A stretch of 24,000 bases of DNA from Devosia sp. GTDB taxonomy: Bacteria > Pseudomonadota > Alphaproteobacteria > Rhizobiales > Amorphaceae. Location: the NCBI GenBank assembly GCA_051016205.1, contig CP136534.1, forward strand, positions 640,835 to 664,834, written 5' to 3'. The notes beneath the pieces are model-generated. The model had not been told where the DNA came from. It worked only from the letters and a program-made list of their open reading frames with translations, and did not search any database. Made by a program: the position numbers and the translations under genes. Within the stretch, counting starts at the first letter, position 1. Each line of letters starts with the position of its first letter. This document shows positions 2,234 to 21,692 of this stretch, one piece after another.

Positions 2234-3472
2234 CTAGAGCAACGACTGGAATGGAGCGAAGCTCACGGCATCGTCATGCGCTATGCTCATCCGATCGGCT
2301 TCGATGAAGCCAAGACCCTCAGCGTCGCACAGCGGTCGCAAACGCGCGGAGCCCCCTTTGCCAAGGCGATCGATCATAGGACGACCGTTGTCATGGCCGA
2401 TGATACGTCCCGGAAAAAACTCGGCCCGACCAGGTTTCCGGTAAAGATCGAAGGCGGCGCCTGCTGGCGCAAAAGCTGGGACTGTGGCGCGGCCGTCCAG
2501 AGCAGTTAGTATGGGTGGCGCAAACAGCGTGAGCGCAACGAGTGCTGCGAACGGATTGTCCGGAAGACCAAGAACTGTTGTCCCGCATACCGTGCCCAAA
2601 GCCACCGGTTTCCCTGGCTTCATCTTTACGCCAGCGCAATGCCAACTTCCACCGCTCGATGCGACTGTGGAGCGAAGGAGATCCTTGTCTCCACTCGCCA
2701 TTCCGCCGCTTGTCACGACAAGTTCGACGGTTCCGGCGAGGCGTAAGAGAGCCGCCATGAGAGCCTCCGGATCGTCTGTGAAGCGCTCCTTTACAACCAG
2801 CTTGCATCCGTGCGCCGCGAAAAACGCCGCCGCCATGGAAGAATTAGAATCGTAGACTTGGTAGGATCTTCGGTTAGCACCTGGTATGGCAAGCTCCGAC
2901 CCATTTGCGATTAGCGCTACTCTGGGCCTTTGTGCCACCTGCACATCTCCGACCCCCAGCGCCGCGAGGAGTGCGACATGGCGCGCATCAATCCGTACGC
3001 CTGACGCCATAACGAGCTCGTTCTGGTCAACATCTTCCCCACGCCGGCGAATGTTCGCGCCCTTGCGCACGTGGCCAGAAAGCACGATTGACTTGCTGCC
3101 ACTTTCCACATGCTCCTGCATCACAACAGATGCGACGTTTTCGGGGACGGGGGCGCCGGAGAAGATGCGGACCGCCCCTGAAGCATCGGGTGGTTGGTTA
3201 GCACCCGCTCTACCGTCACTCTTCACCGTGATCGCTGTCCCCAACCTGTCGATATGGTCGAGTGCCAGGGCGTAGCCATCGACCGCAGCATGATCGAATG
3301 GCGGAAGTTGCATCGGGGCACGTACGTCCTCGGTAAGCGTTCGACCGACGGCGTCGTCTATTTTCACCATCTCCCACCCGCACCGCCCGCCAACTCTTCG
3401 CGCCACGAAATCAGGTATATCTTCAACACTAAGGCGAAGCGTTGCGTTCGTCTCGTAGACGAATGTTGTCAT
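2234..3472 (-). CDS. moeA: molybdopterin molybdenumtransferase MoeA
   Basis: 412-aa ORF with the typical MoeA N-terminus (LSVEDI...AVGRTLTEDVRAPMQLPPFDHAAVDGYAL) and an MoCF-binding middle domain (VVTSGGMASGDKD). Its position downstream of aioA matches known aio clusters. Confidence 0.9.
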   Translation of the reverse strand: MTTFVYETNATLRLSVEDIPDFVARRVGGRCGWEMVKIDDAVGRTLTEDVRAPMQLPPFDHAAVDGYALALDHIDRLGTAITVKSDGRAGANQPPDASGAVRIFSGAPVPENVASVVMQEHVESGSKSIVLSGHVRKGANIRRRGEDVDQNELVMASGVRIDARHVALLAALGVGDVQVAQRPRVALIANGSELAIPGANRRSYQVYDSNSSMAAAFFAAHGCKLVVKERFTDDPEALMAALLRLAGTVELVVTSGGMASGDKDLLRSTVASSGGSWHCAGVKMKPGKPVALGTVCGTTVLGLPDNPFAALVALTLFAPPILTALDGRATVPAFAPAGAAFDLYRKPGRAEFFPGRIIGHDNGRPMIDRLGKGGSARLRPLCDAEGLGFIEADRMSIAHDDAVSFAPFQSLL

Positions 3473-3541: not shown

Positions 3542-6091
3542 TTACGAGTATGTCGCTTCTTTGGACTTGAAGGATAAATGATGTACCGCACGGGGGGCGT
3601 CGGCAATCTTGCGGATGTTTCCCCACGTCTGTTTATAATTGGGGATGATCAGCTCGTTGACACCGGCGTTCACAACATTGCCTTGGACGCCCGTCGGATA
3701 GGCGAATAACATGAATGTCTCGCCGGGGCGGGCAGTCGGGGTTGGATACACCATCGCCTGGGTGGACCCCGCATCGTTATAAACCTCGACGAGATCGCCT
3801 TCTTCGACGCCGATACCTGTCATGTCGTCAGGATTCATCTCGATATACGGGAACGGCCAGCGGTCCATGACAAACTCGTTCTCGTCGTCAAGGTAAGCCG
3901 ACTGCCACACGAGGTTTGCACGGCCGTTGTTGATGAGGAAATCGAACTCTGCCTTCTGCTCCTCCTTTCCGGGTGCCCTGAGGCCTCCCCACTCGGCGAC
4001 GCAGAAGCGCGCGCGACCGTCGTCAGTGGAGAAGTTTCCGTCCGCATACAGGCGTTTTGTTCCGACAATCTCCCCGTTCTCGAAACCGACTGCCGGCTCT
4101 TGGAACCCGTTGGTGCCCATTTCGCGCAGACGCTCGTATGTGACGAACTCGCCGCCACCTGCGTGTGTATGGTAGCCATCCATAAACACGTCCTCGTTTG
4201 TCTGCCAATCGAACTTTCCGGCGAAGGCTTCCGCACGTTCGGCATTGCCAAGATCTCGGAAAACCCGCTCCAGATGGTTGGCTATACGCGCTGCGATGAG
4301 CCCGTCGCCCATGGCCTGGCCGGGAGGGTCCATGTATCTCTCGGTAAGCCGCATCCGTCGCTCGCCGTTCATGGACGTGATCGGCACCTCGCCCGCGGTG
4401 GCAGCCGGGAGCACGACATGCGCGGCTTCGCCGATCTTCGTCGGCACAATGTCGATGTCGACCACGAAGAGGCCGCCATTCGCTATCGCTCCCATTATCG
4501 CCTCGACCATCGCCTCTCGATCGCCGTATGGCACGGAACTCATGGCGTCCTTTACCTTGTCAGTGCGCTCTTTGTAGACGCGCTTGAATTCAAATGCGTT
4601 GAGCGTCGTTTTGTAGTGATCGCAGGCCCAGACGTGATGCACGCCGCCTTCACCTTGTATGAGGAGTTGATCGATGTAGGGTGCTGGTCGGCCGATGAAT
4701 GCGTCGGATGGGCGGACATATCCTTCTTGGTGGCCACCAAGGCGCACGCAGCCGCCACCCGGCCTTCCAATGTTACCAGTCGCGAGCGCTAGGTTTACCA
4801 AGGCACCATTGGTGCGGTAGTTGTCGTTGCCCCAAATCAGCCCCTTTTCGTAGCAAAACATCGTTCTTCTTCGGGCGCCACCGTCCTTGGGCTCAGCTAT
4901 CCAACGCGCGGCCTTCTCCATGTCTTCGACTGAGACGCCTGTAATCTCCGCCGCTTCTTCGAGGGTTGTTCGATTGGCATCGAGCGCGGTTTGGAAGTCC
5001 GTCAAGGGTGCCACTTCACCCTTCGACAGCGGTTTGCGCGGTAGTTCCGGAGACCCCTCGCTAGCGCTCGCCGTGGGTTCGGCTGTGCGCGCGTCGATGA
5101 ACTCTTTGTCGATCCAGCCCTGATCGGCGATGTGCGACATCAACGCGTTTAGAAGTACCATGTCGGTACCACTATTGATGGCGAGATGGAGGACGTTGTC
5201 GGCGCCTGCCTCAATCTCGCACGCATTAACGGAAACTGTACGTCGCGGATCGACGATGACAATCCTTCCGCGTTCGTGCGGTTCGTTGGGCAGCTCTTGC
5301 CGTTTTCTCGGGAGCGAGCCACCATTGAGGTTGGGTACCCAGTGGTTCAGGAAATAGTTAGTCTGTGCTTCGACTGGATTTGCGCCAACCACCATGATTG
5401 TGTCGGCAAGCTGCGCATCCTCATAGCAGTTATTGAGTTCGCCGACGCCCATGTCCCGGGACGCGTGAACCTCCGAGTTATACGCTGGCCGATTGTGGAT
5501 CCGAATGTTCCGAATCTTCAGCGGGTCGAAGTAGAGCTTACCTGTCCCCCAGGTGAACTCATAGCCGCCACCTGCACCGCCGTGGTCAGCCGCCGAGACG
5601 AAAAGGCCATCCTCGCCCTGCTCCTCGATGACCCTTGCCGTCACTTGCGCGACGAGATCGAGCGCATCGTCCCAGCCTGTGGGTTGCATCTGGCCGTAGC
5701 GCCAGACCATTGGATCTTTCAGGCGCTGTTGCTGAGTTCCGGACGTTTCCGAGTGGCTCAATTCAGCAATCCGTGCGCCGCGCGCAGACGCGAGACCTGA
5801 ATTGACCGAGCAGCCGTAGTCCGGCTTTACCACTATATGGACGTCTTTGCCGTCCTGCTTTACGACGTTGTACATGGATGGCGAATACCAAGCCTCCGAG
5901 TTGATGGCTTGCTGGCTTGTCAGGTCAACGCCGAAGGCATTTTGGTCAGGAGCTGTTCCCCCTTGCTGTTTAGCCGGCCATGTATAGGCGTGATAGCCGC
6001 ATCCGACGATACAGTAGTGACAGACGACATTGTGCTTCTTGGCGTCGACGGGTGGGATCGGCAGCCTGTCAATGTTTCTTTTGAAAGCCAT
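3542..6091 (-). CDS. aioA: arsenite oxidase large (molybdopterin) subunit AioA
   Basis: Starts at the internal ATG 6091 (MAFKRNIDRLPIPPVDAKKHNVVCHYCIVGCGYHAYTW), 1 nt after the aioB stop. The N-terminal C-x2-C-x3-C motif (CHYCIVGC) is the AioA 3Fe-4S signature. A molybdopterin oxidoreductase body follows (849 aa). The 90 codons upstream in the track ORF overlap aioB and are an artefact. Confidence 0.95.
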   Translation of the reverse strand: MAFKRNIDRLPIPPVDAKKHNVVCHYCIVGCGYHAYTWPAKQQGGTAPDQNAFGVDLTSQQAINSEAWYSPSMYNVVKQDGKDVHIVVKPDYGCSVNSGLASARGARIAELSHSETSGTQQQRLKDPMVWRYGQMQPTGWDDALDLVAQVTARVIEEQGEDGLFVSAADHGGAGGGYEFTWGTGKLYFDPLKIRNIRIHNRPAYNSEVHASRDMGVGELNNCYEDAQLADTIMVVGANPVEAQTNYFLNHWVPNLNGGSLPRKRQELPNEPHERGRIVIVDPRRTVSVNACEIEAGADNVLHLAINSGTDMVLLNALMSHIADQGWIDKEFIDARTAEPTASASEGSPELPRKPLSKGEVAPLTDFQTALDANRTTLEEAAEITGVSVEDMEKAARWIAEPKDGGARRRTMFCYEKGLIWGNDNYRTNGALVNLALATGNIGRPGGGCVRLGGHQEGYVRPSDAFIGRPAPYIDQLLIQGEGGVHHVWACDHYKTTLNAFEFKRVYKERTDKVKDAMSSVPYGDREAMVEAIMGAIANGGLFVVDIDIVPTKIGEAAHVVLPAATAGEVPITSMNGERRMRLTERYMDPPGQAMGDGLIAARIANHLERVFRDLGNAERAEAFAGKFDWQTNEDVFMDGYHTHAGGGEFVTYERLREMGTNGFQEPAVGFENGEIVGTKRLYADGNFSTDDGRARFCVAEWGGLRAPGKEEQKAEFDFLINNGRANLVWQSAYLDDENEFVMDRWPFPYIEMNPDDMTGIGVEEGDLVEVYNDAGSTQAMVYPTPTARPGETFMLFAYPTGVQGNVVNAGVNELIIPNYKQTWGNIRKIADAPRAVHHLSFKSKEATYS

Positions 6092-6092
6092 T

Positions 6093-6620
6093 TCAGCCCC
6101 CCAACACATTCGAAGTACGACCGTAGATGAGTTCGTCGACGCCTTCGGCAAAAATGTTGCCTGAACCATCGACCCGCAGAACGAATTGAGGCAAGTTTTG
6201 TGTAGCCTGCCCCCAGGTTTGCTGGCCACCTTTTTCAGGATCGAAGATCGAATAGTGACCTCGGCAGTTGAAGGTTCGCTGTTCCTTGGAGTAAATGAGA
6301 GGCCATCCCTTGTGGGGACAAAGAATCGAGAACCCGACAATGTCGGTATCGGGACCGACACCGTCTGGGACAGCCAAACCGAGTTTCAACAAGACGCCGG
6401 GAGATTGTGAGTCTGGGTAGGCGACAGTGAGCGGTTCGTTGACCTCGAGATCGGCGACGTTGGCAAGCCGATTTGATGGGTAGTCGACCAGCGCCGCGGT
6501 CTGAGCTGTTTGGGCGCTGGCCGGCATAACCGAGGCACTTGCCGCGCCGACGGCTGCTACAGCACCGCCTCGCAGGAATTGACGTCGGCCGACATCGACC
6601 AAGCGGTTGCAACCTTTCAT
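6093..6620 (-). CDS. aioB: arsenite oxidase small (Rieske) subunit AioB
   Basis: 175 aa. Has a twin-arginine signal (GRRQFLRGGAVAAVGA) and Rieske ligand boxes CPHKG and CRGHYS. Lies directly upstream of aioA. Confidence 0.95.
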   Translation of the reverse strand: MKGCNRLVDVGRRQFLRGGAVAAVGAASASVMPASAQTAQTAALVDYPSNRLANVADLEVNEPLTVAYPDSQSPGVLLKLGLAVPDGVGPDTDIVGFSILCPHKGWPLIYSKEQRTFNCRGHYSIFDPEKGGQQTWGQATQNLPQFVLRVDGSGNIFAEGVDELIYGRTSNVLGG

Positions 6621-6657
6621 GGCGTTTCCCCGAGTTGCCTTTTTTCGACGTTGTCAA

Positions 6658-6686
6658 ATTAAAGACCAGTTCCAAAGCAAACGCAA
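6658..6686 (-). promoter_or_regulatory. candidate sigma70-type aioB promoter (TTGCGT-N17-TTTAAT)
   Basis: Minus strand has TTGCGT (6686-6681), a 17-nt spacer, then TTTAAT (6663-6658), about 38 nt upstream of the aioB ATG. Read by eye only. Confidence 0.3.
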
Positions 6687-6716
6687 TGGATCAAAGGCAC
6701 TTCCTACGTTAGGTGT

Positions 6717-6732
6717 GGCGTTTTAATTGCCG
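6717..6732 (-). promoter_or_regulatory. candidate sigma54 -24/-12 element (CGGCAA-N5-ACGC)
   Basis: Minus strand reads cGGCAAttaaaacGCc, with the correct GG-N10-GC register, about 97 nt upstream of the aioB ATG. The -12 TTGC is degraded to ACGC. The cognate activator lacks GAFTGA (see findings), which weakens this reading. Confidence 0.3.
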
Positions 6733-6820
6733 AACATAAGTAATACATGTTTGGAGTTCCGAACATATTAATAAGACTTATGGCTGTATATAGAATTAAA
6801 TGAAAATTAGGTGTTTAAGA

Positions 6821-8113
6821 CTAATGTAGAGAATGCCTTCGCATCTTCTCCCAAAGTGTCGTTCGCGAAATCCCAAGTAACGACGCTGCCTCTTGCAAGC
6901 GACCATCGGCGTCTTTCAGTGCGCCGGCGATCGCTCGCCTTTCTGCGGCATTACGCACGTCGGTGAGCGCGCTCCCGCCGATGGTCTCGCTCCGAGCCGT
7001 TGTCGGAAAAAGGTCGCTGGGTAAGAGCCACGGCCCCTCTGCCATGGCACACGCACGTTCAAGCCGATTGCGAAGCTCCCTAGCGTTACCCGGCCACTCA
7101 TGCAAACGTGCAGCCTCGATCGCGAGATTAGACAGGCCGCGCAGCACACGCTTTCCACTGCCGCTGTCTTTGAAGTGATCAAAGTACAGCCTGGCAAGCC
7201 ACTCAATATCGAGTGGTCGGGAATGCAACGGAGGAAGTGCCACTGAGAATGTGCTGAGGCGGTAAAACAGCTCGTGCCGCAGCGTACCGCCGGGTTCCTG
7301 ATCACGGGCAAGAGCAACAATTCGGGCTCCGAGCGGCCGCGCCTCGGTCTCCCCAATGCGGCAGAAAGACCCTCGGTCTAAGAGTTCCAAGAGCTTCAGT
7401 TGCACCGCTTTCGGTGCGTCGGATACCGCGTCGAGAAGGAGCACTCCGTCCGCAGCTCGTTCAGCGTAGCCGATATGATCATGGGGTCGGCCAACGATCG
7501 AGGCGGCAGCGTGCCCAAAAATTTCTACCTCAAGAAGTTCCGGTGGGATCGCTGCGCAGTTTACTGCCACAAAAGGTGTATTTGGACGGGATAACTCGTG
7601 AAGGCGACGTGCGCACACCTCTTTCCCGACGCCGATCGGTCCGGTGATGAGGACCGGAGTATCGCTGTCTGCGATGCGCGAAAGGGTCCTCTCAATTTCG
7701 ACCATCTCGTTGGATGCACCAAGCGTACACCGCGTTTCGGCCTTTTCGGCGAAACGCCCGAGACGATCCAATAGCTCGCTTAGCGAGAAGGGTTTCGTCA
7801 GGTAGTCGCTCGCCCCCCGACGCATTAAATCAACGGCCTGATCGATGTCAGCGTACGCGGTCATGAAGAGAAATGGTGCAGGATGCGGCAAGCGAGCCGC
7901 TTCGCAAAAAACCTCGTCGCCAGAGCGTCCGGGCAGCCGGATATCGCACAGGACGACATCCGGCGGGCATTCGGCGAGCCCCTTCAGTGCCTCTTCTCCG
8001 CAGCGCCACCAAGTTACGTCTATCCCTTCGAGGGACAAGCCTTGAACAAGCGATTCGCCCATAATCTTATCGTCTTCAATGATCGCAACGCACAGCGCAT
8101 CATGCGGCTTCAT
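6821..8113 (-). CDS. aioR: NtrC-family response regulator AioR (receiver + AAA+ + HTH) with an atypical AAA+ core
   Basis: The ATG at 8113 is preceded by GGAGG at 8 nt; the track start 8143 is a TTG. Contains a receiver domain (IIEDD...VVLCDIRLPG), Walker A GPIGVGKE, the WPGNARELRN region and a C-terminal Fis-type HTH (LLGISRTTLWEKM). Confidence 0.9.
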   Translation of the reverse strand: MKPHDALCVAIIEDDKIMGESLVQGLSLEGIDVTWWRCGEEALKGLAECPPDVVLCDIRLPGRSGDEVFCEAARLPHPAPFLFMTAYADIDQAVDLMRRGASDYLTKPFSLSELLDRLGRFAEKAETRCTLGASNEMVEIERTLSRIADSDTPVLITGPIGVGKEVCARRLHELSRPNTPFVAVNCAAIPPELLEVEIFGHAAASIVGRPHDHIGYAERAADGVLLLDAVSDAPKAVQLKLLELLDRGSFCRIGETEARPLGARIVALARDQEPGGTLRHELFYRLSTFSVALPPLHSRPLDIEWLARLYFDHFKDSGSGKRVLRGLSNLAIEAARLHEWPGNARELRNRLERACAMAEGPWLLPSDLFPTTARSETIGGSALTDVRNAAERRAIAGALKDADGRLQEAASLLGISRTTLWEKMRRHSLH

Positions 8114-9602
8114 GCCAGGTACCTCCGCGTTTGAAGTCGACAATAGGAATGGATAGAACGATTTTTGTGCCCACGGTGCATCGGTTCCAATCGATCGTGC
8201 CGCCGCTGTCGCTAACGGCTCTACGCACCATCCAGAGCCCGAGCCCGCCGTGATGGCCGAGCGGCCTCTTCGCGTCTGTGTCCTTTAGGATAGCCGCAGC
8301 TGCGTCAGGGATGCCGGGACCGCTATCCTTGACGGCAATCACGAGAATTGAGTTCCCTTCGGATATGAATATGTCGACCTCGATTTGAGTGCCGGCAGGC
8401 GATGCTATAGCTGCATTCAGCACTAGGTTGAGGAGTACCTGTCTCATTGGGGATCGCGGCACTGCTATTGCACCTTCGAGTGCGATGCGCCACGTTGCTG
8501 TCAATGAGCGCCGTCTGATCTCGAGACTCGTTAGCGTCCTTACGTCATCGACATCGCTCGGTCCGAAACCTGGCTTACCCCGTTCCGGGCGGTATACGTG
8601 GAGCGTTGCCTTGACGATGTCGCGAATGTCAGCGAGCCCTCGATCGATTAGTCGAGCGCTCCGTTGCCGAACCGACTCGTTATGTCCGTGTCTTTTTATC
8701 GTATCGACGGCGTTGAAGAGACCGCCGAGCGGATTGTTGATCTCATGGGCCATCCCTGATGCAAGGCGACCAAGGTCGGCCAATCTCTCCTCCTCAGCAA
8801 GCTGTTTTTCTAGAAGTCGCCTATCCTTCTGGGCGCGCGCCAGTGCGTTGTAGTGGGTGAAGAGGCGATGGCCCTCAGTGCCAATAGCAGGCATCCTCGG
8901 CAGGGGGATTTCGCTCGGGCCGGTCTGCGCATCCACGGCAAGATGTCTTGTGAGGATCTGCATCGGCTCAAGAAGCTTGATCACGACCAAGAATCCCAGC
9001 GCCGCACAACCGAGCGTGAGAAGGCCATTTGTCAAAAGCAAGAGCACCGTCACCTGGTGCCGCTCGGCGATCAGCGCTTCCACATCTATCAGTGTGGAAA
9101 TCGTTCCCACGTTCCGGCCCTCTGACGTTAGTGTTCGCCTTAGGGTCGCAGTTCCGGCGGCCGCATCGATGTGCGCGCCGCCGTCCAGCTTAGCGGCGCG
9201 AAAACTTGAGGGGAGCTCTCCGAGGGTGGGCGCTGTCGCCGGATCGGTTGCCGCGATGATTTGCCCAGCACTGTTCGTTACAACGGCCTCAAGAGGGCGC
9301 ACAGCGCCATTAGTTTCCAGCGACCGCTCAAGTGTTTCGAAAGCCGCCCATATGTCTTCGCGGGCAACGTAGGGAGTGAGAGCGGGTGCGAGCCCAGCGA
9401 GGTATGCATTCGCCAGATCGTCGATTTGCTGCGATTGCGTTTGGATGAGGCGGGACATAACGCGTTCCGACACAGCCACGCCGACGAAGATCATAAGGAT
9501 TGCAACGACCAGCGGGACCTTAATCACGAGAGGAAGCTTGGCCGCCCATTGCATCGGCAATCGTATCCAGTAGGATACTCCTGGGGGACGTTGATGTTTC
9601 AT
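8100..9602 (-). CDS. aioS: sensor histidine kinase AioS
   Basis: Two N-terminal TM segments flank a periplasmic loop. Has an H-box (MAHEINNPLGG), N-box (LLNLVLNAAIAS) and G-boxes (DSGPGIP, GGLGLWMV). Its ATG overlaps the aioX stop as ATGA (9602-9599). Confidence 0.85.
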   Translation of the reverse strand: MKHQRPPGVSYWIRLPMQWAAKLPLVIKVPLVVAILMIFVGVAVSERVMSRLIQTQSQQIDDLANAYLAGLAPALTPYVAREDIWAAFETLERSLETNGAVRPLEAVVTNSAGQIIAATDPATAPTLGELPSSFRAAKLDGGAHIDAAAGTATLRRTLTSEGRNVGTISTLIDVEALIAERHQVTVLLLLTNGLLTLGCAALGFLVVIKLLEPMQILTRHLAVDAQTGPSEIPLPRMPAIGTEGHRLFTHYNALARAQKDRRLLEKQLAEEERLADLGRLASGMAHEINNPLGGLFNAVDTIKRHGHNESVRQRSARLIDRGLADIRDIVKATLHVYRPERGKPGFGPSDVDDVRTLTSLEIRRRSLTATWRIALEGAIAVPRSPMRQVLLNLVLNAAIASPAGTQIEVDIFISEGNSILVIAVKDSGPGIPDAAAAILKDTDAKRPLGHHGGLGLWMVRRAVSDSGGTIDWNRCTVGTKIVLSIPIVDFKRGGTWHEAA

Positions 9603-10495
9603 CCTAGGCCGGCCGTAAGCATTTTTTGCCGGATCGGCTCGTAAAGTGACGCATCTCTCCGATCAAAACCATCAAGATGCAGCATCGCAAGAACCACTTG
9701 GCCGAGCGCATCTTCTTTTAGGGCCAAAACCGCGGCTTCAACCGCGGCTGTTGCCGCGGGATCTGCGGGTTCCCGTGGTGCAGCAATCGGAGGAAAGCCA
9801 AGCCACTCCGATTTCCAGACCGCCTTTACTTGAGCCCCAAGAGAAGGGTCGACAGCCGCGAGAACGTCGGCGACATAGCCGTCGACCGAGCCAGACTGCG
9901 CAAGTCCCGTCGCGACCGCCCGAACGACGTTTTCGTGACCGTAGGTGAAAAAGGTACGGGAGAAGTGTTGGTCCGGCTGTCTCGAGACAGTGGCAAGGTG
10001 AGCACGCGTGACAAGGTATCCGGAGTTCGAGTCAGGATCGGAGTATGCATGAATGTCTCCGACAAGATCGACAACGTCATGAGCGGCGCGGTTCGCCTGC
10101 GTGATGATATAGGACTGGTAGAGCGGCCGACCCTGCCATATCGGCACAGCAAGCAGCTTTAGAGCGCTTCGAAACCGGACGAACGGGTACCCGCAGATCC
10201 ACGCCGCGTCGAGCTCACGTGCGACAAGAAGCGTAGTGACTTCTTGGTAGGTCCGGCGCGATACGAGCTCGATGGAACGCCCCGTTGCGCGCTCTAGGTA
10301 AGCACGCATCGCTGCCAAAACCTCGGCATCGGTCGCGAGGAAAACAGGCGTTAAGCCAAAACGAATTGGCCGGCTAGCGCGAAGGCGCCGGCCAGCGAAG
10401 GGTGCAGTGCCCAAGGCGAAAACCAGAGCTCGCCGTGTGGGTCCACAAGCTAGGGTCGATGCCTTCAATGGCACACGCGTTTGCCCCCAACTCAA
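9599..10495 (-). CDS. aioX: periplasmic PhnD-like binding protein AioX
   Basis: Type-2 periplasmic binding protein fold signature (IRFGLTPV...ELDAAWICGYPFV...SNSGYL). The N-terminus is signal-like (TRRALVFALGTAPFAG). It is the first gene of aioXSR, as in model clusters. The exact start is uncertain: TTG 10495 or GTG 10474. Confidence 0.8.
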   Translation of the reverse strand: MSWGQTRVPLKASTLACGPTRRALVFALGTAPFAGRRLRASRPIRFGLTPVFLATDAEVLAAMRAYLERATGRSIELVSRRTYQEVTTLLVARELDAAWICGYPFVRFRSALKLLAVPIWQGRPLYQSYIITQANRAAHDVVDLVGDIHAYSDPDSNSGYLVTRAHLATVSRQPDQHFSRTFFTYGHENVVRAVATGLAQSGSVDGYVADVLAAVDPSLGAQVKAVWKSEWLGFPPIAAPREPADPAATAAVEAAVLALKEDALGQVVLAMLHLDGFDRRDASLYEPIRQKMLTAGLG

Positions 10496-10652: not shown

Positions 10653-11521
10653 TGAATATAAAGAACGAAAGCGAAGCACTTGCGGCGCTGGGCCATCCGG
10701 GCCGTCTCGCCGTGTTTCGGCTATTAGCTCGACGCATGCCACAAGGGGTCCGACCTAGTGAGATTGCCGGCGCGCTTCGCCTGAAGCCAAACACACTGTC
10801 TGTCTATGCAGGCATCCTGACGCGCGCTGGGCTTTTGAATACCTGGCGCGACGGTCGCTCTGTCTACTACGGCGTGAACTTGGACCGGTTCGGTGAGCTT
10901 GTAAGATATCTAGTCCACGATTGTTGTCACGGGCGGCCAGAACTCTGCCTTGATGACTCAGGGGACGAAGAAGTTACGGTCGCCGGGCGCTCCGGACCGT
11001 ATCATGTACTATTTGTCTGTACGGGAAACTCAGCCCGATCAATCTTTGCGGAAGCGTTGCTTGGCCGGATGGGACATGGCCAGTTTGTTGCCCATTCGGC
11101 GGGAACTAAACCCTACTCGCGCGTCAACCCCAAAGCCGCATTGGTCTTGCAATCGGTTGGCGACGATCCGGGTAAGTACTCACCGAAATCGGCCAATAAG
11201 TATCTCGACGATGGATCCGCCAGAATGGATTTCGTCGTCACGGTCTGTGACCGAGCGGCGAACGAAGATGCACCGCCCTGGCCGGGACGGCCAATGATTG
11301 CGCATTGGGGTGTATCCGACCCCGTCAGTGCTGGCAATGACAACCAATTAAAGCCCTTCGAGATCGCCTTCCGAGCACTCGAGCACAAGGTTAAGCGCTT
11401 CGCCAAGCTGCCGCTTGACACCATGCGACCGACCGAAATCCAAGCCGCTCTCGACGACATCGGCCAAAACCGAGACAAGCGCGGCCCTGCGCCACGTGGC
11501 GCCAGAAACCATCAAGTGTGA
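10652..11521 (+). CDS. arsRC: ArsR-family metalloregulator fused to an LMW-PTP-type arsenate reductase (ArsC) domain
   Basis: Starts at the internal ATG 10652 of track ORF 10481..11521. The N-terminal winged HTH (LGHPGRLAVFRLLA...SEIAGALRLKPNTLSVYAGILTRAGLL...GRSVYY) ends in DCCHGRPELC. It is followed by an LMW-PTP/ArsC domain: P-loop VLFVCTGNSARS, TVCD and HWGVSDP. Confidence 0.85.
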   Translation: MNIKNESEALAALGHPGRLAVFRLLARRMPQGVRPSEIAGALRLKPNTLSVYAGILTRAGLLNTWRDGRSVYYGVNLDRFGELVRYLVHDCCHGRPELCLDDSGDEEVTVAGRSGPYHVLFVCTGNSARSIFAEALLGRMGHGQFVAHSAGTKPYSRVNPKAALVLQSVGDDPGKYSPKSANKYLDDGSARMDFVVTVCDRAANEDAPPWPGRPMIAHWGVSDPVSAGNDNQLKPFEIAFRALEHKVKRFAKLPLDTMRPTEIQAALDDIGQNRDKRGPAPRGARNHQV

Positions 11522-12171
11522 ATGGCGGAGTAGCGATCTTGGCACGGCTAGCTGTCAACGGACTTGGCCAGATTGATAAACTTGTGCTTCGGCGTCTGAT
11601 CCGAACGAGCGGATGTCATGAGATTGCACTTTTGAACGCTCCCGCCGGCAACCCGGCTCAGCACACGACGCTTATAGAGTTTGATTCCGCCCATGGTCGC
11701 TGGCTGGAAGCGTTTGGCTTCGATCATGGAAGCCTCAGCGTTGACGTTACGCTATCGCCGTTTGTCCAGGTGAGACGGATCGAAGACCTCCCGCTCGCCA
11801 CCCATGGAATTGACATCGTGGTAGATTGCACTGGCGTCTTCACATCCACGGAAGAGGTCGAGCTTTCCTTTAGAGCTGGCGTACAAAAAGCCGTGATATC
11901 GGCGCCGATAAAAAATGGTGCGCTCTACCTCGTGATAGGCGTCAGTCAACATCTCGATAAAGTTGGTAAGCGCCGAAACATCACGGCTGCAATTTGCACA
12001 AAGAGCTGCGGCGCCTCAGTCGTCAGAGTCCTTCACGAAGCGATTGGGATCAAGTGCGACTCAATCACTACAATCCACGACTTCAGAAACACACAAACAA
12101 TCGTTGATCACCCTGCAAGAAACAATGACTGGGAGGTCTCGCCGTGTCGAAATGGCGTGTCTATTCTGTAG
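11518..12171 (+). pseudogene. truncated, degenerate glyceraldehyde-3-phosphate dehydrogenase-like gene
   Basis: 217 codons, collinear with about the first 200 residues of GAPDH (VNGLGQIDKLVLRRL..., IDIVVDCTGVF, AICTKSCGASVV = SCTTNC region, ITTIHDF..TQ..VD....DW). The NAD loop GRIGR is GQIDK. The whole C-terminal 40 percent is missing. The GTG start overlaps the arsRC stop as GTGA. Confidence 0.6.
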
Positions 12172-13181
12172 TTGCATTTACTCTAGGTGGTCTGGGAGCC
12201 GCTGTCGCCCAAGAACCTATTGATATCGTCGGATCATCGACTGTGTATCCCTACACCAAACTTGTAGCTGATGCTTTCGCCGAACAGGGCAAGCACCCGC
12301 CACCAACCATTCGCTCGACGGGCACAGGTGGCGGGATGGCTGTCTTCTGCGCAGGCATAGGACCCGATTACCCAGACATGACCGGGGCATCACGGCCCAT
12401 GAAGCATTCCGAGTGGGAGATATGCCGCGACAACGGCGTGTTCGACATAACCGAGATGATGATTGGATATGATGGACTCACTCTTGCCACACCTCGGACG
12501 ACAGATGACGATTTCATCCTAACCCTTCAGGATCTCTACACAGCACTCGCTAAAACCGTGCCCATCGACGGAGAGCTCAGACCAAATCCCCATACTACGT
12601 GGGCCGACGTTCGCTCCGAACTACCCGATATCCCTATTTCCGTTATTGGCCCGCCACCGACGTCAGGCACCCGGGATTCCTTCGAGGAGCTGGCGATGCA
12701 GGGGGGCTGCCGGATGTATCCGGTCTTGGCGGCCCTTGAAGATACTGACGGGGATGAGTGGACGCGTATCTGCTCAACGATTCGCACAGACGGTCCGTTT
12801 GTTGAGGGCGGTGAGGATGATGAAGAAATCGTACGGGTTCTCTCCGAAAAGCCCGGTACGTTAGGTATATTTGGCTACTCATACTACTATCAGAACACCT
12901 CGATACTAAAGCCTGTTTTGATCGAGGGTATTTCGCCAGATTTTCTATCGATCTCAACTCGAGAATACCCGCTTTCTCGCCCTTTATATCTATATATTAA
13001 AAATGAGAGCCGAGAGTTTACTCCTGGAATTGTAGACTTTATAAATGAATTTTTGTACGGAGCCTCGCCAGGGGGATATTTGTTTGTGTCAGGTCTTGTG
13101 CCTGTTCTTGACGATGTTGAGCGGGAAACAATCGCCGCCTACGCAATTGACGGGGAAGAAATGCTACCGCCCGCAGACTGA
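12144..13181 (+). CDS. pstS: PstS-family (PBP-like 2) phosphate/oxyanion-binding protein, paralog 2
   Basis: GTG 12144 lies 7 nt after GGGAGG. Has a signal peptide (VVAFTLGGLGAAVAQE). Oxyanion-site motifs GSSTVYPYT, STGTGGGM, TGASR and PPTSGTRDSF are present. Collinear with the pstS at 15996..17042. Confidence 0.85.
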   Translation: MSKWRVYSVVAFTLGGLGAAVAQEPIDIVGSSTVYPYTKLVADAFAEQGKHPPPTIRSTGTGGGMAVFCAGIGPDYPDMTGASRPMKHSEWEICRDNGVFDITEMMIGYDGLTLATPRTTDDDFILTLQDLYTALAKTVPIDGELRPNPHTTWADVRSELPDIPISVIGPPPTSGTRDSFEELAMQGGCRMYPVLAALEDTDGDEWTRICSTIRTDGPFVEGGEDDEEIVRVLSEKPGTLGIFGYSYYYQNTSILKPVLIEGISPDFLSISTREYPLSRPLYLYIKNESREFTPGIVDFINEFLYGASPGGYLFVSGLVPVLDDVERETIAAYAIDGEEMLPPAD

Positions 13182-13255
13182 GGCATCTTTCCGAATATAA
13201 GATTTGATTCGCCAAGGATCGGCTCATTTGATGATCCTCGATCCCACATTTCCTA

Positions 13256-14545
13256 TCACCAATTTCGCTGAAGTCGTGCTCTCAAGAAGACCGCAATTGC
13301 ATTCATAGTTATGAGGAAGCCGAGCAAAACCAGGATGCCTGCCGACGTCCGTGAAACAAACCCGCGCTCGGGACTGTCCGCCCAAATGTATATCTGCGTA
13401 GGCAGCGCCGTGGCTGGATCCGCAATCCCTCCTGGGGGGCTCGTTAGAAATGCGTTCATCCCGATCAGAAGGAGGGGCGCCGTTTCCCCGAGGGCCTGTG
13501 CGAGGCCAATGATGGTGCCGGTTAGAATGCCGGGTAGCGCGAGGGGGAGGACGTGATGCACAATCATCTCATGTTTGGACGCGCCCATCCCAAGGGCCGC
13601 TTCGCGAATGGAAGGGGGTACTGACCGGAGCGCCGATCGCGTAGCGATGATTATGGTAGGCAACGTCATCAGTGCGAGCACCATACCACCAACCAGGGGC
13701 GCTGATCGTGGCAGCCCCAAGAAATTGAGAAAGACCGCAAGCCCCAACAAGCCGAATATGACCGACGGAACCGCGGCCAAGTTATTGATATTGACCTCTA
13801 CGATATCGGTCAGTCGGTTCTTCGGCGCAAACTCTTCAAGGTAAACAGCTGCTGCGACTCCCATCGGGAAACTCAAAAGGAAACAGACGAGGAGGGCGTA
13901 AAAGGATCCGACAATCGCGCCCCGCAGGCCAGCGAGCTCGGGAAAGCGGCTATCGGAATTGAGAAAAAGACCCCAGTTGAAGGGTGCGGAAACGAGACCC
14001 TGTTCCTTTAAGCGATCGAACATATGGATCTGAAAGTCATTGATCCGTCGCCGGTTTTCGGGTGTCTCTCGTAGAATGCGTCCTTTGTTGAACTGGTCGG
14101 CAATGTCCGCAGCAGGAATTTCAACTTCTATCGTTTGCCCGACGACGGACGGATCACTAAGAAGTTCATCTCGTAGAAGGAATGGAGCGGGCTGCGTGTA
14201 GAGCTGCCTAAATTGCCTAAACTCTGCGTTACTGAGATCCGAAAATTCTCTTCTGAGGCTATCATCGAATACAGATCGCCAGTCGCTTGCGAAGAAGTTC
14301 TCTGAGTTGACCTCCGCCGGATCAACGTATATTTGTGCCCGTATTTCGGTCTGAAGGAATGCAGGATAACCTGTGGCAACTAATGATACAATCAAGGTTG
14401 CCAACATGCCGAAGGCAACGATAATACTACCGATCCCAAAGATGCGTAGGTAGAGGTCAAGCCGACTGCGCCTCTTTCTTAGCTGCTTGACATGATCGGA
14501 ATCCCAAGCCACCGACCCCGCCCGTGGTGCGGCGATATCACTCAT
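13256..14545 (-). CDS. pstA: phosphate ABC transporter permease PstA
   Basis: The ATG at 14545 overlaps the pstC stop by 8 nt (ATGAGTGA). Multi-TM permease with the EAA-type loop (ALRSVPPSIREAALGMGAS). Long alphaproteobacterial-type form. Confidence 0.9.
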   Translation of the reverse strand: MSDIAAPRAGSVAWDSDHVKQLRKRRSRLDLYLRIFGIGSIIVAFGMLATLIVSLVATGYPAFLQTEIRAQIYVDPAEVNSENFFASDWRSVFDDSLRREFSDLSNAEFRQFRQLYTQPAPFLLRDELLSDPSVVGQTIEVEIPAADIADQFNKGRILRETPENRRRINDFQIHMFDRLKEQGLVSAPFNWGLFLNSDSRFPELAGLRGAIVGSFYALLVCFLLSFPMGVAAAVYLEEFAPKNRLTDIVEVNINNLAAVPSVIFGLLGLAVFLNFLGLPRSAPLVGGMVLALMTLPTIIIATRSALRSVPPSIREAALGMGASKHEMIVHHVLPLALPGILTGTIIGLAQALGETAPLLLIGMNAFLTSPPGGIADPATALPTQIYIWADSPERGFVSRTSAGILVLLGFLITMNAIAVFLRARLQRNW

Positions 14546-15917
14546 ATTGTTCCCGCCAGCGTTTGACGATCGAAATCGCTGCAATGTTGATGCCAAACGT
14601 CAAAATGAACAGTGTGAGCCCCAACGCAAAAGCAGCCAGAGTCTTCGGTGAGTCAAACGCCGTGTCTCCAATGAGGAGCGTGACAATCTGTACTGTTACA
14701 GTCGTGACGCTGTCTATGGGGTTGAGGGTAAGCGTTGCGAATATACCGGCCGCCATCACGACAATCATCGTCTCACCGATTGCGCGGCTCACCCCCAGCA
14801 GAATGCCACCCATAATCCCTGGTAACGCCGCCGGCACGAGAACCTTGAGCATTGTCTCTCCGCGAGTCGCCCCAAGTGCAAGTGAGCCATCGCGCAGCGA
14901 CCTTGGGATCGCGGAAATAGCATCGTCGGAGAGTGATGAAATGAACGGGATGATCATGATACCCATTACCGCTCCGGCAGCAAGTGCACTGTTTGGCGAT
15001 ACCGCAAGACCTAGAATCTGGCCAAACTCCCGGAGCGCGGGCGCGACCGTGAGGACGGCAAAGAAGCCGTAAACGACCGTCGGAACACCCGCCAATATTT
15101 CCATGATTGGCTTGACGACCGAGCGGGTGGACGGCGTCGCAAACTCGACCAGGTAGATGGCTGTGAAGAGGCCAATCGGCGTCGCTACCAGCATTGCGAT
15201 TGCCGCGATAAGGACTGTCCCGATGAAAACAGGAGCAATTCCAAACGCCCCCGATGCGGCGACTTGATCTTCACGTAGCGGAATCTGGGGCTCCCAGTTG
15301 AGGCCAAATAAGAATTCTTGAATAGGGACCATCCCGAAAAAGCGGACGGCCTCGTATACGAGCGACGCAAGAATCCCGAGAGTCGTCATGATCGCCGCGG
15401 CAGCGCACAAAAACATGAGTGCCGATATCACCCGCTCGAAGCGGTTACGGGCCCGAAAATCCGGACCGAGCTGAGAACGCGCAACGACCAGCGCGATCAG
15501 CATGACGCTGATCGCGACAACAAGCATCGCCCAGTTCGCAATGTGAGTCCAACGCACGAGTGTTTCCGCCGCAATGAGAATCTCACGCGATGGCGCGCCG
15601 AAAGTCCGTCCTTCTGCCGCGTTTGCTATTTGTTGCGAAATCAGCGCTGCCTGCGCAGGCGTCTTTCCCTCCAGTGCGCTTGCCGGAAGTGTTTCGAGAA
15701 CGAGGCCTGCAATGACGTTGTCTTCGAGCAACAGCCAAAGTATCACTAGAACGAGAGTGGGCACGCCGACCCAGACTGCAACGAAAGCTCCGTGATAGAT
15801 GGGCCGCGAATGGATCCGGTCGGTCGAAGCGGCTGCCAACGCGAGCCCCTTGGATCGACCGATTAAGTAAGACGTCGCAACAAAGATCGCGATTAGCAAA
15901 AACGCGTAGCCCGCCAT
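14538..15917 (-). CDS. pstC: phosphate ABC transporter permease PstC
   Basis: 459-aa multi-TM protein with the permease loop SAIPRSLRDGSLALGATR. Lies between pstS and pstA. Confidence 0.9.
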   Translation of the reverse strand: MAGYAFLLIAIFVATSYLIGRSKGLALAAASTDRIHSRPIYHGAFVAVWVGVPTLVLVILWLLLEDNVIAGLVLETLPASALEGKTPAQAALISQQIANAAEGRTFGAPSREILIAAETLVRWTHIANWAMLVVAISVMLIALVVARSQLGPDFRARNRFERVISALMFLCAAAAIMTTLGILASLVYEAVRFFGMVPIQEFLFGLNWEPQIPLREDQVAASGAFGIAPVFIGTVLIAAIAMLVATPIGLFTAIYLVEFATPSTRSVVKPIMEILAGVPTVVYGFFAVLTVAPALREFGQILGLAVSPNSALAAGAVMGIMIIPFISSLSDDAISAIPRSLRDGSLALGATRGETMLKVLVPAALPGIMGGILLGVSRAIGETMIVVMAAGIFATLTLNPIDSVTTVTVQIVTLLIGDTAFDSPKTLAAFALGLTLFILTFGINIAAISIVKRWREQYE

Positions 15918-15937
15918 ACAACCTCAGTAGTCGTAAC

Positions 15938-15967
15938 AAAAAAAGCGGCCAGTCAGAGACCGGCCGC
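15938..15967 (-). terminator. intrinsic terminator/attenuator between pstS and pstC
   Basis: Minus strand reads GCGGCC-ggtctctgact-GGCCGC followed by TTTTTTT. Confidence 0.55.
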
Positions 15968-15995
15968 AGTTTTTCCCGTAAAGTTATGCACCTTT

Positions 15996-17042
15996 CTAAC
16001 TCTTCGGCGCTTCCATCGCAACCCCTTCGACCGCGTTACTTTGAACCCCAGCGCGGCGCTCGTCGCCCAGCGGCGTCAGGCCGCGCTGCGAAAGGTAGCC
16101 GCCAGTCTCAAGGGCCGCATCCGACACGTACTCTTCGATGAACGCCTGAAGATTCGGGATCGCGTCGCGATGGGCGTTCTTGATGTAGAAGAAGATTGGG
16201 CGCGCGATGTCGTAGTCGCCAGATGCGATCGTGTCGAAATTCGGCTCAGTATCATTCACCGGCACGGCCTTCAGACTGTCTTGGTTTTCGTATAGGAAGG
16301 AGTAGCCGAAAATACCAAGCGCGTTCGGGTCGGAGATGAGACGCTGAACGATGAGGTTGTCGTTCTCACCGGCCTCAATGAACGGTCCGTCCGTCCGCAT
16401 CCGCGAGCAGACTTCTTCCCATTTGTCCTCGTCGGCCTCTTCCATCTCGGCCAGCATCTCGAACCCATTGCACCCATCGTGCATGGCGAGCTCGACGAAC
16501 GCGTCGCGCGTGCCTGACGTCGGCGGTGGGCCGAAGACTGTGATGTCAGTGTCAGGGAGTTCAGGGTTGATCTCGGACCACTTGGTGTAAGGGTTGTCGA
16601 CAAGTTCGCCGTCCACGGGCACCTGTGCCGCGAGAGCCATGAAGAGCTCTTGCTCGGTGAGGCCAAAGTCCACAGCACCTTGCGCATGCGCAATGGAAAG
16701 GCCGTCGAATCCGATCAGAACCTCGGTAATATCCGTGACGCCGTTAGATTGGCAGTCTTCCCATTCGGACGACTTCATCGAGCGGGACGCGCCGGTGATG
16801 TCGGGGAAGTCGGGTCCGACGCCGCCGCAGAAGATTTTCATGCCACCGCCGGTGCCGGTCGATTCGACGATCGGAGACGGAGCCCCGGTCGACTGGGCGA
16901 ATTGCTCAGCAACGGCTTGCGTGTATGGAAATACGGTCGACGATCCAACGATGCTGATCTGATCCCGAGCCTGAACCGGACCAGCGACAGCGACAGCGCC
17001 AACGGCGAGCGCTGTAGCGGTGAGAAGGGCATACTTGCTCAT
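15996..17042 (-). CDS. pstS: phosphate ABC transporter substrate-binding protein PstS, paralog 1
   Basis: The internal ATG 17042 (MSKYALLTATALAVGAVAVAGPVQA signal) is preceded by GGGAGAG. Same motif set as paralog 2: GSSTVFPYT, STGTGGGM, TGASR, PPTSGTRDAF. Confidence 0.9.
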   Translation of the reverse strand: MSKYALLTATALAVGAVAVAGPVQARDQISIVGSSTVFPYTQAVAEQFAQSTGAPSPIVESTGTGGGMKIFCGGVGPDFPDITGASRSMKSSEWEDCQSNGVTDITEVLIGFDGLSIAHAQGAVDFGLTEQELFMALAAQVPVDGELVDNPYTKWSEINPELPDTDITVFGPPPTSGTRDAFVELAMHDGCNGFEMLAEMEEADEDKWEEVCSRMRTDGPFIEAGENDNLIVQRLISDPNALGIFGYSFLYENQDSLKAVPVNDTEPNFDTIASGDYDIARPIFFYIKNAHRDAIPNLQAFIEEYVSDAALETGGYLSQRGLTPLGDERRAGVQSNAVEGVAMEAPKS

Positions 17043-17086
17043 GATCTCTCCCACGAGTTCATTTTTATCACCGCTAACCGAGCCCG

Positions 17087-17104
17087 ATGACGGCTGTATG
17101 ACAG
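17087..17104 (-). promoter_or_regulatory. Pho box (PhoB site) upstream of pstS
   Basis: Minus strand reads CTGTCAT-ACAG-CCGTCAT, i.e. 7/7 and 6/7 matches to the CTGTCAT direct repeats at 11-bp spacing. A TAAAAT-like -10 lies about 20 nt downstream and the ATG is 44 nt downstream. Confidence 0.55.
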
Positions 17105-17313
17105 CCTGAGCGTCCATGGGAAACAACCCGCCTGCCGAGGCGGTAGCAACTGCTAGTCAGCACCTGAGCCAAAACGCTTGGCTATCTAAACAAGACAAAC
17201 CAGTCCCCGAATTTCCTCGGGCTGCTCACCGCTATCGAACGCTGGGCGTCCGCCCACCGCCATCCTTTACGAAGTTTCTAGTCACCACCTTCGGTTCCCA
17301 CCGAAAGCTTCGA

Positions 17314-18743: not shown

Positions 18744-18890
18744 GGTCTCGCCCCCGAGACGGCGCGGCGCAGGGCGCCGCACTCCAAAGGTGTCGTTCGG
18801 GGCGCTCGCCGCTGGGCAAGGGTTCATGCGCGGAAAGTGTCCTTCGGGAGGCTTGCGCAATTCCACAAACCCAAACTCAGGAGACAATCC

Positions 18891-21131: not shown

Positions 21132-21692
21132 TCAGCTTCCCCTGTCGAACCGCTTGATGGAACGTGTCAGCGTCCATGGATGAACGCGAAGTTGCCTCGC
21201 GATGTCCTTCAGCGTCATTGTCCCCAAAGCGATGCGCAACTGGGCCGAGCGAACCTGCTCTTCGCTAAGCTTCGGCGGGCGGCCAAGCCTCACGCCGCGG
21301 GCCCGCGCTGCTGCAAGCCCTTCGCGTGTGCGTTCGGAGATTTTTCGCCGTTCCCGCTCAGCGGCGGCGGCATTGACCTGATAGGCGTAGTTCCCATCAG
21401 CGGTAAGCGTGTCGACGACAAAGTTCACCGCTTTCAGGCAAACCCCACGTCCCCGCAGCTGCTCGTCGTGCACGATGGCGTCAGCGGTAGATCGGAAGGC
21501 GCGGTCCAGATCCCAGACCAAGAGCGTGTCGCCACGCTTCAGCCGCCGCAGGACCGTTTCAAAGATCGGACGATGATCGGACACCGCCGAAAGACGCTCC
21601 ACATGGAGCTCGTCGCACAGGCCCCTAAGGCCGTCCACCTGGCGGTCGGGCCGCTGCTCCTTCGTACTCACTCTCAGATATCCGATAATCAT
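21132..21692 (-). CDS. serine recombinase (resolvase/invertase family)
   Basis: MIIGYLRVSTKEQ carries the catalytic Ser motif. Also has the DRQ, LLVWDLDRAFRS and ERERRKISERTREGL motifs and a C-terminal HTH (LKDIARQLRVHPWTLTRSI). 186 aa. Confidence 0.9.
   Translation of the reverse strand: MIIGYLRVSTKEQRPDRQVDGLRGLCDELHVERLSAVSDHRPIFETVLRRLKRGDTLLVWDLDRAFRSTADAIVHDEQLRGRGVCLKAVNFVVDTLTADGNYAYQVNAAAAERERRKISERTREGLAAARARGVRLGRPPKLSEEQVRSAQLRIALGTMTLKDIARQLRVHPWTLTRSIKRFDRGS

Follow-up and report, generated by a model that had tools for sequence, protein, structure and literature searches.

We analyzed the gene for the regulator AioR in a stretch of 24,000 nucleotides from Devosia sp. (GenBank assembly GCA_051016205.1, contig CP136534.1, positions 640,835 to 664,834 of the forward strand), which is called the window here and to which coordinates refer unless another locus is named. 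GAFTGA, in loop L1 of canonical enhancer-binding proteins (EBPs), is the motif that contacts sigma-54, and in this AioR it has been replaced, together with the catalytic glutamate of Walker B and the sensor I segment. We favor, with moderate confidence and on the evidence of sequence comparison, the view that this AioR is an atypical EBP, a former sigma-54 activator that was rewired to a sigma-54-independent, probably sigma-70-type promoter of the arsenite oxidase genes aioBA. A sigma-54-independent route to aioBA had been proposed in a sequence-only reading of this DNA, and it gains support from the absence of a -24/-12 promoter element upstream of aioB, from the contrast between 15 of 15 GAFTGA-intact and 0 of 10 motif-defective loci with such an element, from recurrence in at least three lineages, from the retained operator, receiver (REC) domain and helix-turn-helix (HTH), and from purifying selection in a sister lineage.

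Arsenite oxidase regulation is taught as a matter of AioXSR and RpoN, and the RpoN dependence of aioBA has been shown experimentally in A. tumefaciens 5A and in H. arsenicoxydans (PMC3834237, PMC3673622). Our literature search on AioR found no paper on an AioR protein that lacks GAFTGA.

AioR and the changes in its AAA+ domain

6821-8143, minus strand: aioR, open reading frame of 440 amino acids (aa) from TTG, with the architecture REC - AAA+ - HTH_8
7943-7945, minus strand: receiver Asp67, the phospho-acceptor; E23-D24-D25 (acidic pocket), T95 and K117 are intact too
7619-7642, minus strand: Walker A GPIGVGKE; P-loop Gly and Lys retained, near-invariant Glu of GE(T/S)G replaced by Pro (E169P), in common with the sister protein P0001
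7487-7510, minus strand: L1 loop, EKGAFTGA replaced by AAASIVGR (residues 212-219); length unchanged, G218 the sole retained residue
7427-7444, minus strand: Walker B, xLFLDE replaced by VLLLDA; E239A (catalytic Glu) and F236L, D238 retained
7298-7324, minus strand: sensor-I strand, R(I/V)VxATN/HxD replaced by RIVALARDQ (ATN/ATH to LAR) and followed by a 4-aa deletion
6830-6952, minus strand: C-terminal Fis-type HTH, fully conserved, …LLGISRTTLWEKMRRH

Judged by its architecture, synteny, phylogeny and operator, the protein is AioR. The Pfam domains PF00072 (Response_reg), PF00158 (Sigma54_activat), PF25601 (AAA_lid_14) and PF02954 (HTH_8) were all found above cut-off, and no NCBIfam equivalog cut-off was reached. 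The best matches of the protein were all AioR-type (48-56% identical), and the best plasmid matches of aioR were the annotated aioR genes of Sinorhizobium M14, A. tumefaciens and Pseudorhizobium banfieldiae NT-26 (48-51% identity). The true start is likely the ATG of M11 at 8113, which overlaps the aioS stop by 14 nt, as it does in L001, a locus on a metagenomic contig.

The register of the altered motifs was checked by an HMMER alignment to Aquifex NtrC1 and, in MAFFT, by an alignment with the top 120 homologues in a collection of 5.8 billion proteins. The HMMER alignment had no gap from residue 190 to 275 and placed HAAASIVGR opposite YEKGAFTGA and LLLDAVSD opposite LFLDEIGE, and the register in the MAFFT alignment was identical. 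The sequence-only reading had placed the replacement of GAFTGA by ASIVGR (A214-R219) at codons 7504-7487 and that of the Walker B hhhDE by LLLDA at 7432-7427 (D238-A239), and these are the coordinates that the alignments returned. It had described Walker A GPIGVGKE, WPGNARELRN, the receiver Asp (D67) and the HTH as intact, and the residues are indeed present. It had also allowed for a misalignment by eye, of which alignment with AioR of A. tumefaciens and NT-26 gave no sign, both of these having GAFTGA and LFLDEIGD where the window protein does not.

Loss of these motifs is rare among the 120 best homologues: 107 had an exact GAFTGA, 12 had one substitution (9 GAFSGA, 2 GAFTSA and 1 GAFPGA) and in 3 the motif was destroyed, and the LDE of Walker B was present in 120 of 120. 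In the window, E212 and K213, the two residues directly before the GAFTGA position, are both Ala as well, and the RxGG of loop L2 reads RIGE. The segment ATN/ATH after strand beta-4 is presumably sensor I, as is usual for AAA+ proteins and PspF, and its A278L change affects one of the columns with an invariance of at least 95%. Thus, among the signatures of a canonical EBP, GAFTGA, the Glu of the Walker B hhhhDE and sensor I are lacking, whereas Walker A, the arginine finger and sensor II are present; the AAA+ residues retained are the Walker A Gly and Lys, the Walker B Asp, N195, the arginine-finger region LRHELFYRL and the sensor II sequence WPGNARELRN.

The distribution of the changes within the protein was examined at 102 alignment columns, namely those in which 139 canonical AioR-type proteins are at least 95% invariant. 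The window AioR deviated at 13 of them (E169P, E212A, G214A, A215S, F216I, A219R, F236L, E239A, R253E, A278L, F288L, D291E and R307H), which are spread across 140 codons. Because the deviations fall in 13 of 67 columns in the AAA+ domain and in 0 of 35 in REC, HTH or linker (Fisher p=0.0038), the AAA+ losses are, as far as these columns can tell, a targeted relaxation, and general decay is not the pattern. Acceleration of AioR as a whole was considered and rejected: the window and L001 share 85% identity in AioA and 58% in AioR, canonical pairs at 79-80% in AioA share 55-63% in AioR, and the divergence of AioR relative to AioA is therefore within the range of canonical pairs.

An AlphaFold model of the window AioR, built on a 50-sequence alignment, had a mean predicted local distance difference test score of 91. 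Its AAA+ domain superposed on NtrC1 (1ny6) with a template modeling (TM) score of 0.89 and a root-mean-square deviation (rmsd) of 1.9 A, and on the AAA+ structures of NtrC1, FleQ, LuxO and PspF with TM scores of 0.85-0.90 and an rmsd of about 2 A. The fold is therefore predicted to be preserved, and in the model it is the sigma-54 and ATPase determinants alone that are gone.

Putative operators and candidate promoters in the aioR-aioB spacer

6621-6820, minus strand: aioR-aioB spacer, 37.5% G+C vs 58% for the window; no significant -24/-12 element and no terminator-like site
6747-6766, minus strand: putative AioR operator 1, palindrome ATGTTCGGAACTCCAAACAT, centered about 136 nt upstream of the aioB ATG
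6720-6737 (match 6720-6735), minus strand: putative AioR operator 2, degenerate (2 mismatches), ATGTTCGGCAATTAAAAC, 29 bp downstream of operator 1
6658-6686, minus strand: low-confidence candidate for a sigma-70-type core promoter, TTGCGT-17 nt-TTTAAT; score 13, shuffle p=0.19

The loss of the sigma-54 contact motif is accompanied by the loss of the corresponding promoter. We scanned the 150 nt upstream of aioB in 25 loci for TGGCACG-N4-TTGCW (maximum score 19.5; 2000 shuffles per region). All 15 loci in which GAFTGA is intact (the three of NT-26, A. tumefaciens and an Acuticoccus plasmid, four more alphaproteobacterial loci, and eight betaproteobacterial loci that include Herminiimonas, Thiomonas, Cupriavidus and Paraburkholderia) had a strong element with a score of 17.5-19.5 located at -36 to -76 from the ATG (p<=0.0055). 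In contrast, none was found in the 10 loci in which the motif is defective or deleted (the window, L001, L060, L002, L004, L009, L057, L058, L059 and the arx locus L008), where scores were 15.5 or lower and p was 0.085 or higher. The -24/-12 promoter of the published AioR model was thus not found in the window: the best match in these 150 nt was CGGCAATTAAAACGCC at -112 (shuffle p=0.12), which sits inside operator 2, far from the canonical promoter position. It is probably the GG-N10-GC element that the sequence-only reading had pointed out. Another candidate, TGGCGTTTTAATTGC at 6716-6730 on the plus strand, has 2 mismatches to the -24/-12 consensus and overlaps operator 2; it was rejected, as its direction is away from aioB and such matches occur at chance level (37 in the window vs 26 expected).

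The binding site of AioR, on the other hand, was retained. It has been reported that AioR binds the palindrome GT[CT]CG-N6-CG[GA]AC (PMC3673622), of which tandem copies are located 100-200 nt upstream of aioB (PMC3834237). The two putative operators of the window are found some 105-140 nt ahead of the aioB start codon, and the core of operator 1, GTTCGGAACTCCAAAC at 6749-6764, has one mismatch and is the sole match with at most one mismatch in the 24 kb. Equivalent palindromes were found in all alphaproteobacterial loci compared, including every relative that lacks GAFTGA, and the betaproteobacterial loci have a related GTTAC-type palindrome instead. An operator for autoregulation was sought upstream of aioX, where no match with two or fewer mismatches was found.

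In the candidate sigma-70-type promoter of the window, the end of the -10 hexamer is 37 nt before the aioB ATG. The best such candidates end at similar distances in L001 (TTGAGA-17-TTCAAT, 43 nt) and L060 (TTGACT-17-CACATT, 38 nt), and in L001, L061 and L062 the hexamers are located in a nearly identical block with one difference in the -10 and one further downstream. Scores of sigma-70-like hexamers were slightly higher in the loci without GAFTGA than in the canonical ones, a difference that is suggestive only since the loci are not independent (Mann-Whitney p=0.03). An EcfG/RpoE2-like candidate, GGAAC at 6669-6673 on the minus strand with CGTC 18 nt later, was rejected, as its spacing and -10 are off and it is not common to L001 or L060. 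We also observed that the spacer is much more AT-rich than that of most relatives, in which the 150 nt upstream of aioB have 42-72% G+C.

Recurrence and selection in the AioR family

In a neighbor-joining tree of 146 AioR-type proteins, the window AioR was found inside the alphaproteobacterial AioR group as the sister of P0001, with P0036 as the next relative. P0001 is 56% identical to the window protein and has SGMGPG in place of the motif and an intact DE; the AioA proteins are 85% identical, the derived E169P is common to both regulators, and the synteny arsRC-GAPDH-arsJ // aioXSRBA is that of the island type of the window. P0036 (locus L060, gene 453-1748) has GAFPGA, a Thr to Pro change, with the Walker B DE intact. 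In its locus the -24/-12 element of aioB is already gone (p=0.40) and two operators are retained; P0036 is a possible early intermediate of the rewiring.

The same state was found elsewhere in the family. P0076 and P0098 are a separate metagenomic pair in which L1 has lost 2 to 3 residues, and their loci are aioXSRBA clusters without a -24/-12 element. A Rhodobacterales clade of at least 118 clusters of 90% identity consists of proteins of 396-416 aa, 40-46% identical to the window AioR, with L1 and L2 removed by deletions of about 12 aa each, with N[AG], HA, QA or ER at Walker B, and with G[GA]PG at Walker A. Its members in aioXSR-aioBA clusters include those of Rhodobacter sp. CZR27 (plasmid), R. 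ferrooxidans SW2, Thalassovita gelatinovora and Roseovarius ramblicola. In L008, the arx cluster of the Cereibacter azotoformans plasmid pORIO3 (regulator at 5983-7215 of that locus), L1 and L2 are absent, Walker B is ER, and two operator palindromes without a -24/-12 element are found upstream of 7406; therefore the phenomenon extends from Aio to Arx systems in Rhodobacterales. The window is thus not a unique case, but the most eroded member of a small clade that is convergent with a large clade in public genomes. As these alignments and the tree have it, the paired loss of motif and promoter has at least three independent origins, in the window clade, in P0076/P0098 and in Rhodobacterales.

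We tentatively extend this to a broader reading, which we hold to be possible though somewhat less probable than its opposite, in which the AioR family underwent at least three independent conversions from sigma-54 dependence to sigma-54 independence. In each, the -24/-12 promoter would have been replaced and the sensor, the operator and the operator position kept; the window clade would present successive stages, and the end state would be an ATP-trapped AAA+ ring that acts at a distance on a sigma-70-type polymerase. The stages may run from P0036 (GAFPGA, DE, promoter gone) through P0001 (motif erased, DE) to the window (motif erased, E239A, sensor I lost), and in that order promoter turnover or loss of the sigma-54 contact would have come first and loss of the ATPase after.

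Three P0001-type alleles (L001, L061 and L062; 96.5-97.5% nucleotide identity) allowed the ratio of nonsynonymous to synonymous substitution rates (dN/dS) to be estimated. It was 0.19-0.21 for aioR (0.26-0.28 for the AAA+ part), 0.14-0.22 for aioS and 0.15-0.33 for aioB. With a ratio of about 0.2, an aioR without GAFTGA is under purifying selection and is therefore maintained in the sister lineage. In one of the three loci, L061, aioA was called as two open reading frames (12043-13119 and 13121-14593 of that locus; 358 and 490 aa), which is either a frameshifted pseudogene or an assembly error, and the island there is flanked by DDE_3 transposase genes.

Convergent replacements outside the classical motifs were also observed in independent lineages without GAFTGA (the window, P0001, P0076, L008 and L009), at residues 169, 253 and 307. 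At E169 (7637-7639), both the window and P0001 have Pro, and the Rhodobacterales clade has Ala, Gly or Pro; R253 of KLLRL (7385-7387) is replaced by E, H, H and E, and R307 of PPLRER (7223-7225) by H, S and A. These three residues may be required for sigma-54 coupling or hydrolysis only.

Proposed mechanism, alternatives and the surrounding island

In the mechanism that we propose, AioX and AioS would sense arsenite and cause phosphorylation of AioR at D67, and phosphorylated AioR would bind the tandem palindromes upstream of aioB through its unchanged HTH and activate a promoter of the sigma-70 family in the manner of R. capsulatus NtrC. The AAA+ domain may serve as a scaffold for oligomerization or ATP binding, because it still has the Walker A Lys, the Walker B Asp, the arginine finger and sensor II. 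Efficient ATP hydrolysis is probably lost because the Walker B Glu is Ala and sensor I is gone, and contact with sigma-54 is probably lost because GAFTGA is gone. We infer that AioR still activates rather than merely binds and that its partner is a sigma-70-type holoenzyme, for which ATP binding without hydrolysis would be sufficient.

Several known systems resemble parts of this proposal. The canonical AioR proteins of NT-26 and A. tumefaciens, about 48-51% identical, have the same REC-AAA+-HTH architecture, aioX-S-R-B-A synteny and type of operator palindrome. However, they have GAFTGA, LFLDE and ATH, and an aioB gene with TGGCACA-N4-ATTGCA 50 nt upstream, all of which the window lacks. R. 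capsulatus NtrC activates the housekeeping holoenzyme and requires ATP binding without hydrolysis (Bowman & Kranz 1998, as cited in bioRxiv 10.1101/2023.06.06.543975). By its published description, it is a phosphorylation-dependent regulator of the NtrC family without a sigma-54 contact loop, like the type predicted for the window, and its need for ATP fits the combination of an intact Walker A with a Walker B Glu to Ala change. It differs in that L1 was lost by deletion and the regulon is that of nitrogen, whereas the window has substitutions at full loop length and an arsenite regulon. The Rhodobacterales AioR/ArxR clade is like the window in its gene cluster, in lacking GAFTGA and the -24/-12 element, in having the Walker B acidic pair lost and the Walker A Glu replaced, and in keeping the operator, but it is an independent lineage with deleted loops, and the substitution-only state of the window would be an earlier stage of erosion.

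VpsR, TyrR, PhhR, HupR, HsfA, NtrX and Caulobacter NtrC have been assigned to a class of atypical EBPs, and VpsR and others of the class act with sigma-70 RNA polymerase (PMC6158489; bioRxiv 10.1101/2023.06.06.543975). The window has those features of the class that could be tested here, namely EBP architecture with a destroyed GAFTGA and a degenerate Walker B, and a promoter without -24 GG/-12 GC, as is the case for V. cholerae VpsR and other atypical EBPs. These belong to other families and respond to other signals; VpsR binds just upstream of -35 and needs cyclic di-GMP, and NtrX represses, whereas the operators of the window are at enhancer distance. A laboratory counterpart of the Walker B change is the NtrC1 mutant E239A (PDB 3m0e, an ATP-bound crystal by its title), in which the same Glu to Ala change occurs at the aligned position and even under the same residue number. 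That mutant is a sigma-54 activator with GAFTGA kept, whereas the change in the window is natural and comes with the loss of L1 and sensor I.

Several observations weigh against the proposed rewiring. No sigma-70 core promoter reaches significance, and a strict scan calls none on the coding strand; no terminator was found by the scan between aioR and aioB, and thus read-through from the aioXSR promoter is possible; the operators, with 1 and 2 mismatches, are more degenerate than those of relatives; genes nearby have decayed (a truncated GAPDH, no arsJ and no pstB), and a loss of function of the island is conceivable. The 25 loci compared are phylogenetically non-independent, with an effective sample of about 3 transitions. 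Furthermore, the collections searched contain no close relative of the window aioR (best 56% in the 5.8-billion-protein collection and 49% in a scan of GTDB genomes), because of which selection on the allele of the window itself is not measurable. A megablast search of plasmid sequences with the entire window likewise returned no match. Some of these observations are what one would expect if AioR were decaying and activated nothing, with aioBA expressed by read-through from aioXSR, constitutively, or under the control of a different regulator, for instance PhoB or a protein of the ArsR type. The root-to-tip distance of the window protein, the third-longest in the AioR tree, could be read in the same way, and PhoB-dependent control of aioBA is documented where aioXSR is absent (PMC4563254). 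Such decay is the most serious alternative, but we consider it rather unlikely. Neutral decay would hit every domain, yet the REC, HTH and linker columns are untouched; the 440-codon frame is intact and the ATP-binding residues are retained; AioR has not diverged beyond canonical pairs relative to AioA; the sister lineage maintains an aioR of this kind under selection; and the large Rhodobacterales clade shows that the state without GAFTGA is evolutionarily stable.

Alternatively, AioR might be a repressor or anti-activator that resembles Brucella NtrX, occupies the palindromes and is released by phosphorylation, with a constitutive promoter driving aioBA. NtrX without GAFTGA is indeed among the best structural matches (5m7n/o/p) and is a reported repressor (PMC6158489), and Caulobacter NtrC represses some sigma-70 promoters (bioRxiv 10.1101/2023.06.06.543975). 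This is improbable, since the operators are in the canonical upstream-activating position and not over a core promoter, and the architecture is the same as in the activator ancestors. Less probable still is that aioBA is still dependent on sigma-54, through the weak GG-N10-GC match CGGCAATTAAAACGCC 112 nt upstream of aioB and either a non-canonical contact of AioR or a second, canonical EBP encoded elsewhere. A survey by Li et al. (2013) did report -24/-12 boxes in 12 of 12 aioXSR operons, including that of Rhodobacter sp. SW2 (PMC3834237). However, the match in the window is at chance, lies within operator 2 and is outside -36 to -76, and the window protein has changes in L1, at the Walker B Glu and in sensor I. 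In the SW2 locus itself (L057, R. ferrooxidans SW2, ACYY01000001.1; aioB at 7372), the best element, GGGTTCGGGAAAAGCA, is also at chance (shuffle p=0.56) and AioR lacks L1 and L2; for SW2, the survey seems to have taken a bare GG-N10-GC match for a -24/-12 promoter. Finally, the probability that the altered residues are an artefact of sequencing or assembly, such as local frameshifts, is close to nil. The idea arose because the source genome had no match in the collections searched, and nothing was found in its favor. The changes are codon substitutions in an uninterrupted frame, neither of the other two frames of 7520-7460 gives GAFTGA, and a frameshift was therefore excluded; in addition, the changes extend across 140 codons, and E169P recurs in the independent metagenomic P0001.

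If AioR was rewired as we propose, there are consequences beyond this window. The recurrent double loss of motif and promoter, at least three times, means that the sigma-54 model of arsenite oxidase control is not universal, and our results indicate that the RpoN model fails for the window, for two other metagenomic lineages and apparently for all Rhodobacterales aio/arx clusters examined. Predictions or engineering of arsenite oxidation that are based on rpoN would be wrong in these organisms, and the database name "sigma-54-dependent transcriptional regulator" is misleading for AioR proteins without GAFTGA. The question of how atypical EBPs switch sigma factors has been raised (PMC6158489) and can rarely be tested within one orthologous group. 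The AioR family would offer a natural, replicated series for the joint switch of an EBP and its promoter, in which sensor, operator and targets are the same and intermediates are preserved.

The other genes of the cluster, whose order is aioX-aioS-aioR-aioB-aioA-moeA, are as follows.

9599-10495, minus strand: aioX, periplasmic arsenite-binding protein of the Phosphonate-bd fold; start codon uncertain
8100-9602, minus strand: aioS, sensor histidine kinase
6093-6620, minus strand: aioB, Rieske small subunit of arsenite oxidase, 79% identical to that of L001
3542-6082, minus strand: aioA, molybdopterin large subunit, 846 aa from MAFKRN…; Rieske_3/molybdopterin
2234-3472: moeA, adjoining aioA in the cluster

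The aioX-aioS-aioR-aioBA synteny is common to L001, L002, L004, L006, L007, L009, L055-L059 and L062, and the aioA product is 85% identical to that of L001 and 82% identical to that of the Acuticoccus plasmid.

The arsenic island around the cluster shows signs of rearrangement. The product of its GAPDH gene (11518-12171, plus strand) has 217 aa, matches only 42 of the 158 profile positions of Pfam Gp_dh_C and has motifs that seem degenerate, for example NGLGQIDK near the NAD-binding motif. Its partner arsJ, a major facilitator superfamily gene that is present in L001, L061 and L062, is absent from the window, and a PstS-like gene (12144-13181, plus strand) begins inside the GAPDH remnant, which is probably the scar of a deletion or rearrangement. 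On the minus strand, pstS (15996-17126), pstC (14538-15917) and pstA (13256-14596) are followed by no pstB, the next gene being this second, convergent PstS-like gene, and the phosphate/arsenate transporter operon (13256-17126) looks incomplete. The window also encodes a ParB-like protein of 588 aa (18837-20603, plus strand), 47-49% identical to plasmid proteins of Bradyrhizobium and Mesorhizobium, and, downstream of the arsenic island, a serine recombinase/resolvase (21132-21692, minus strand; MIIGYLRVSTKEQ…), which together suggest a plasmid or an integrative element.

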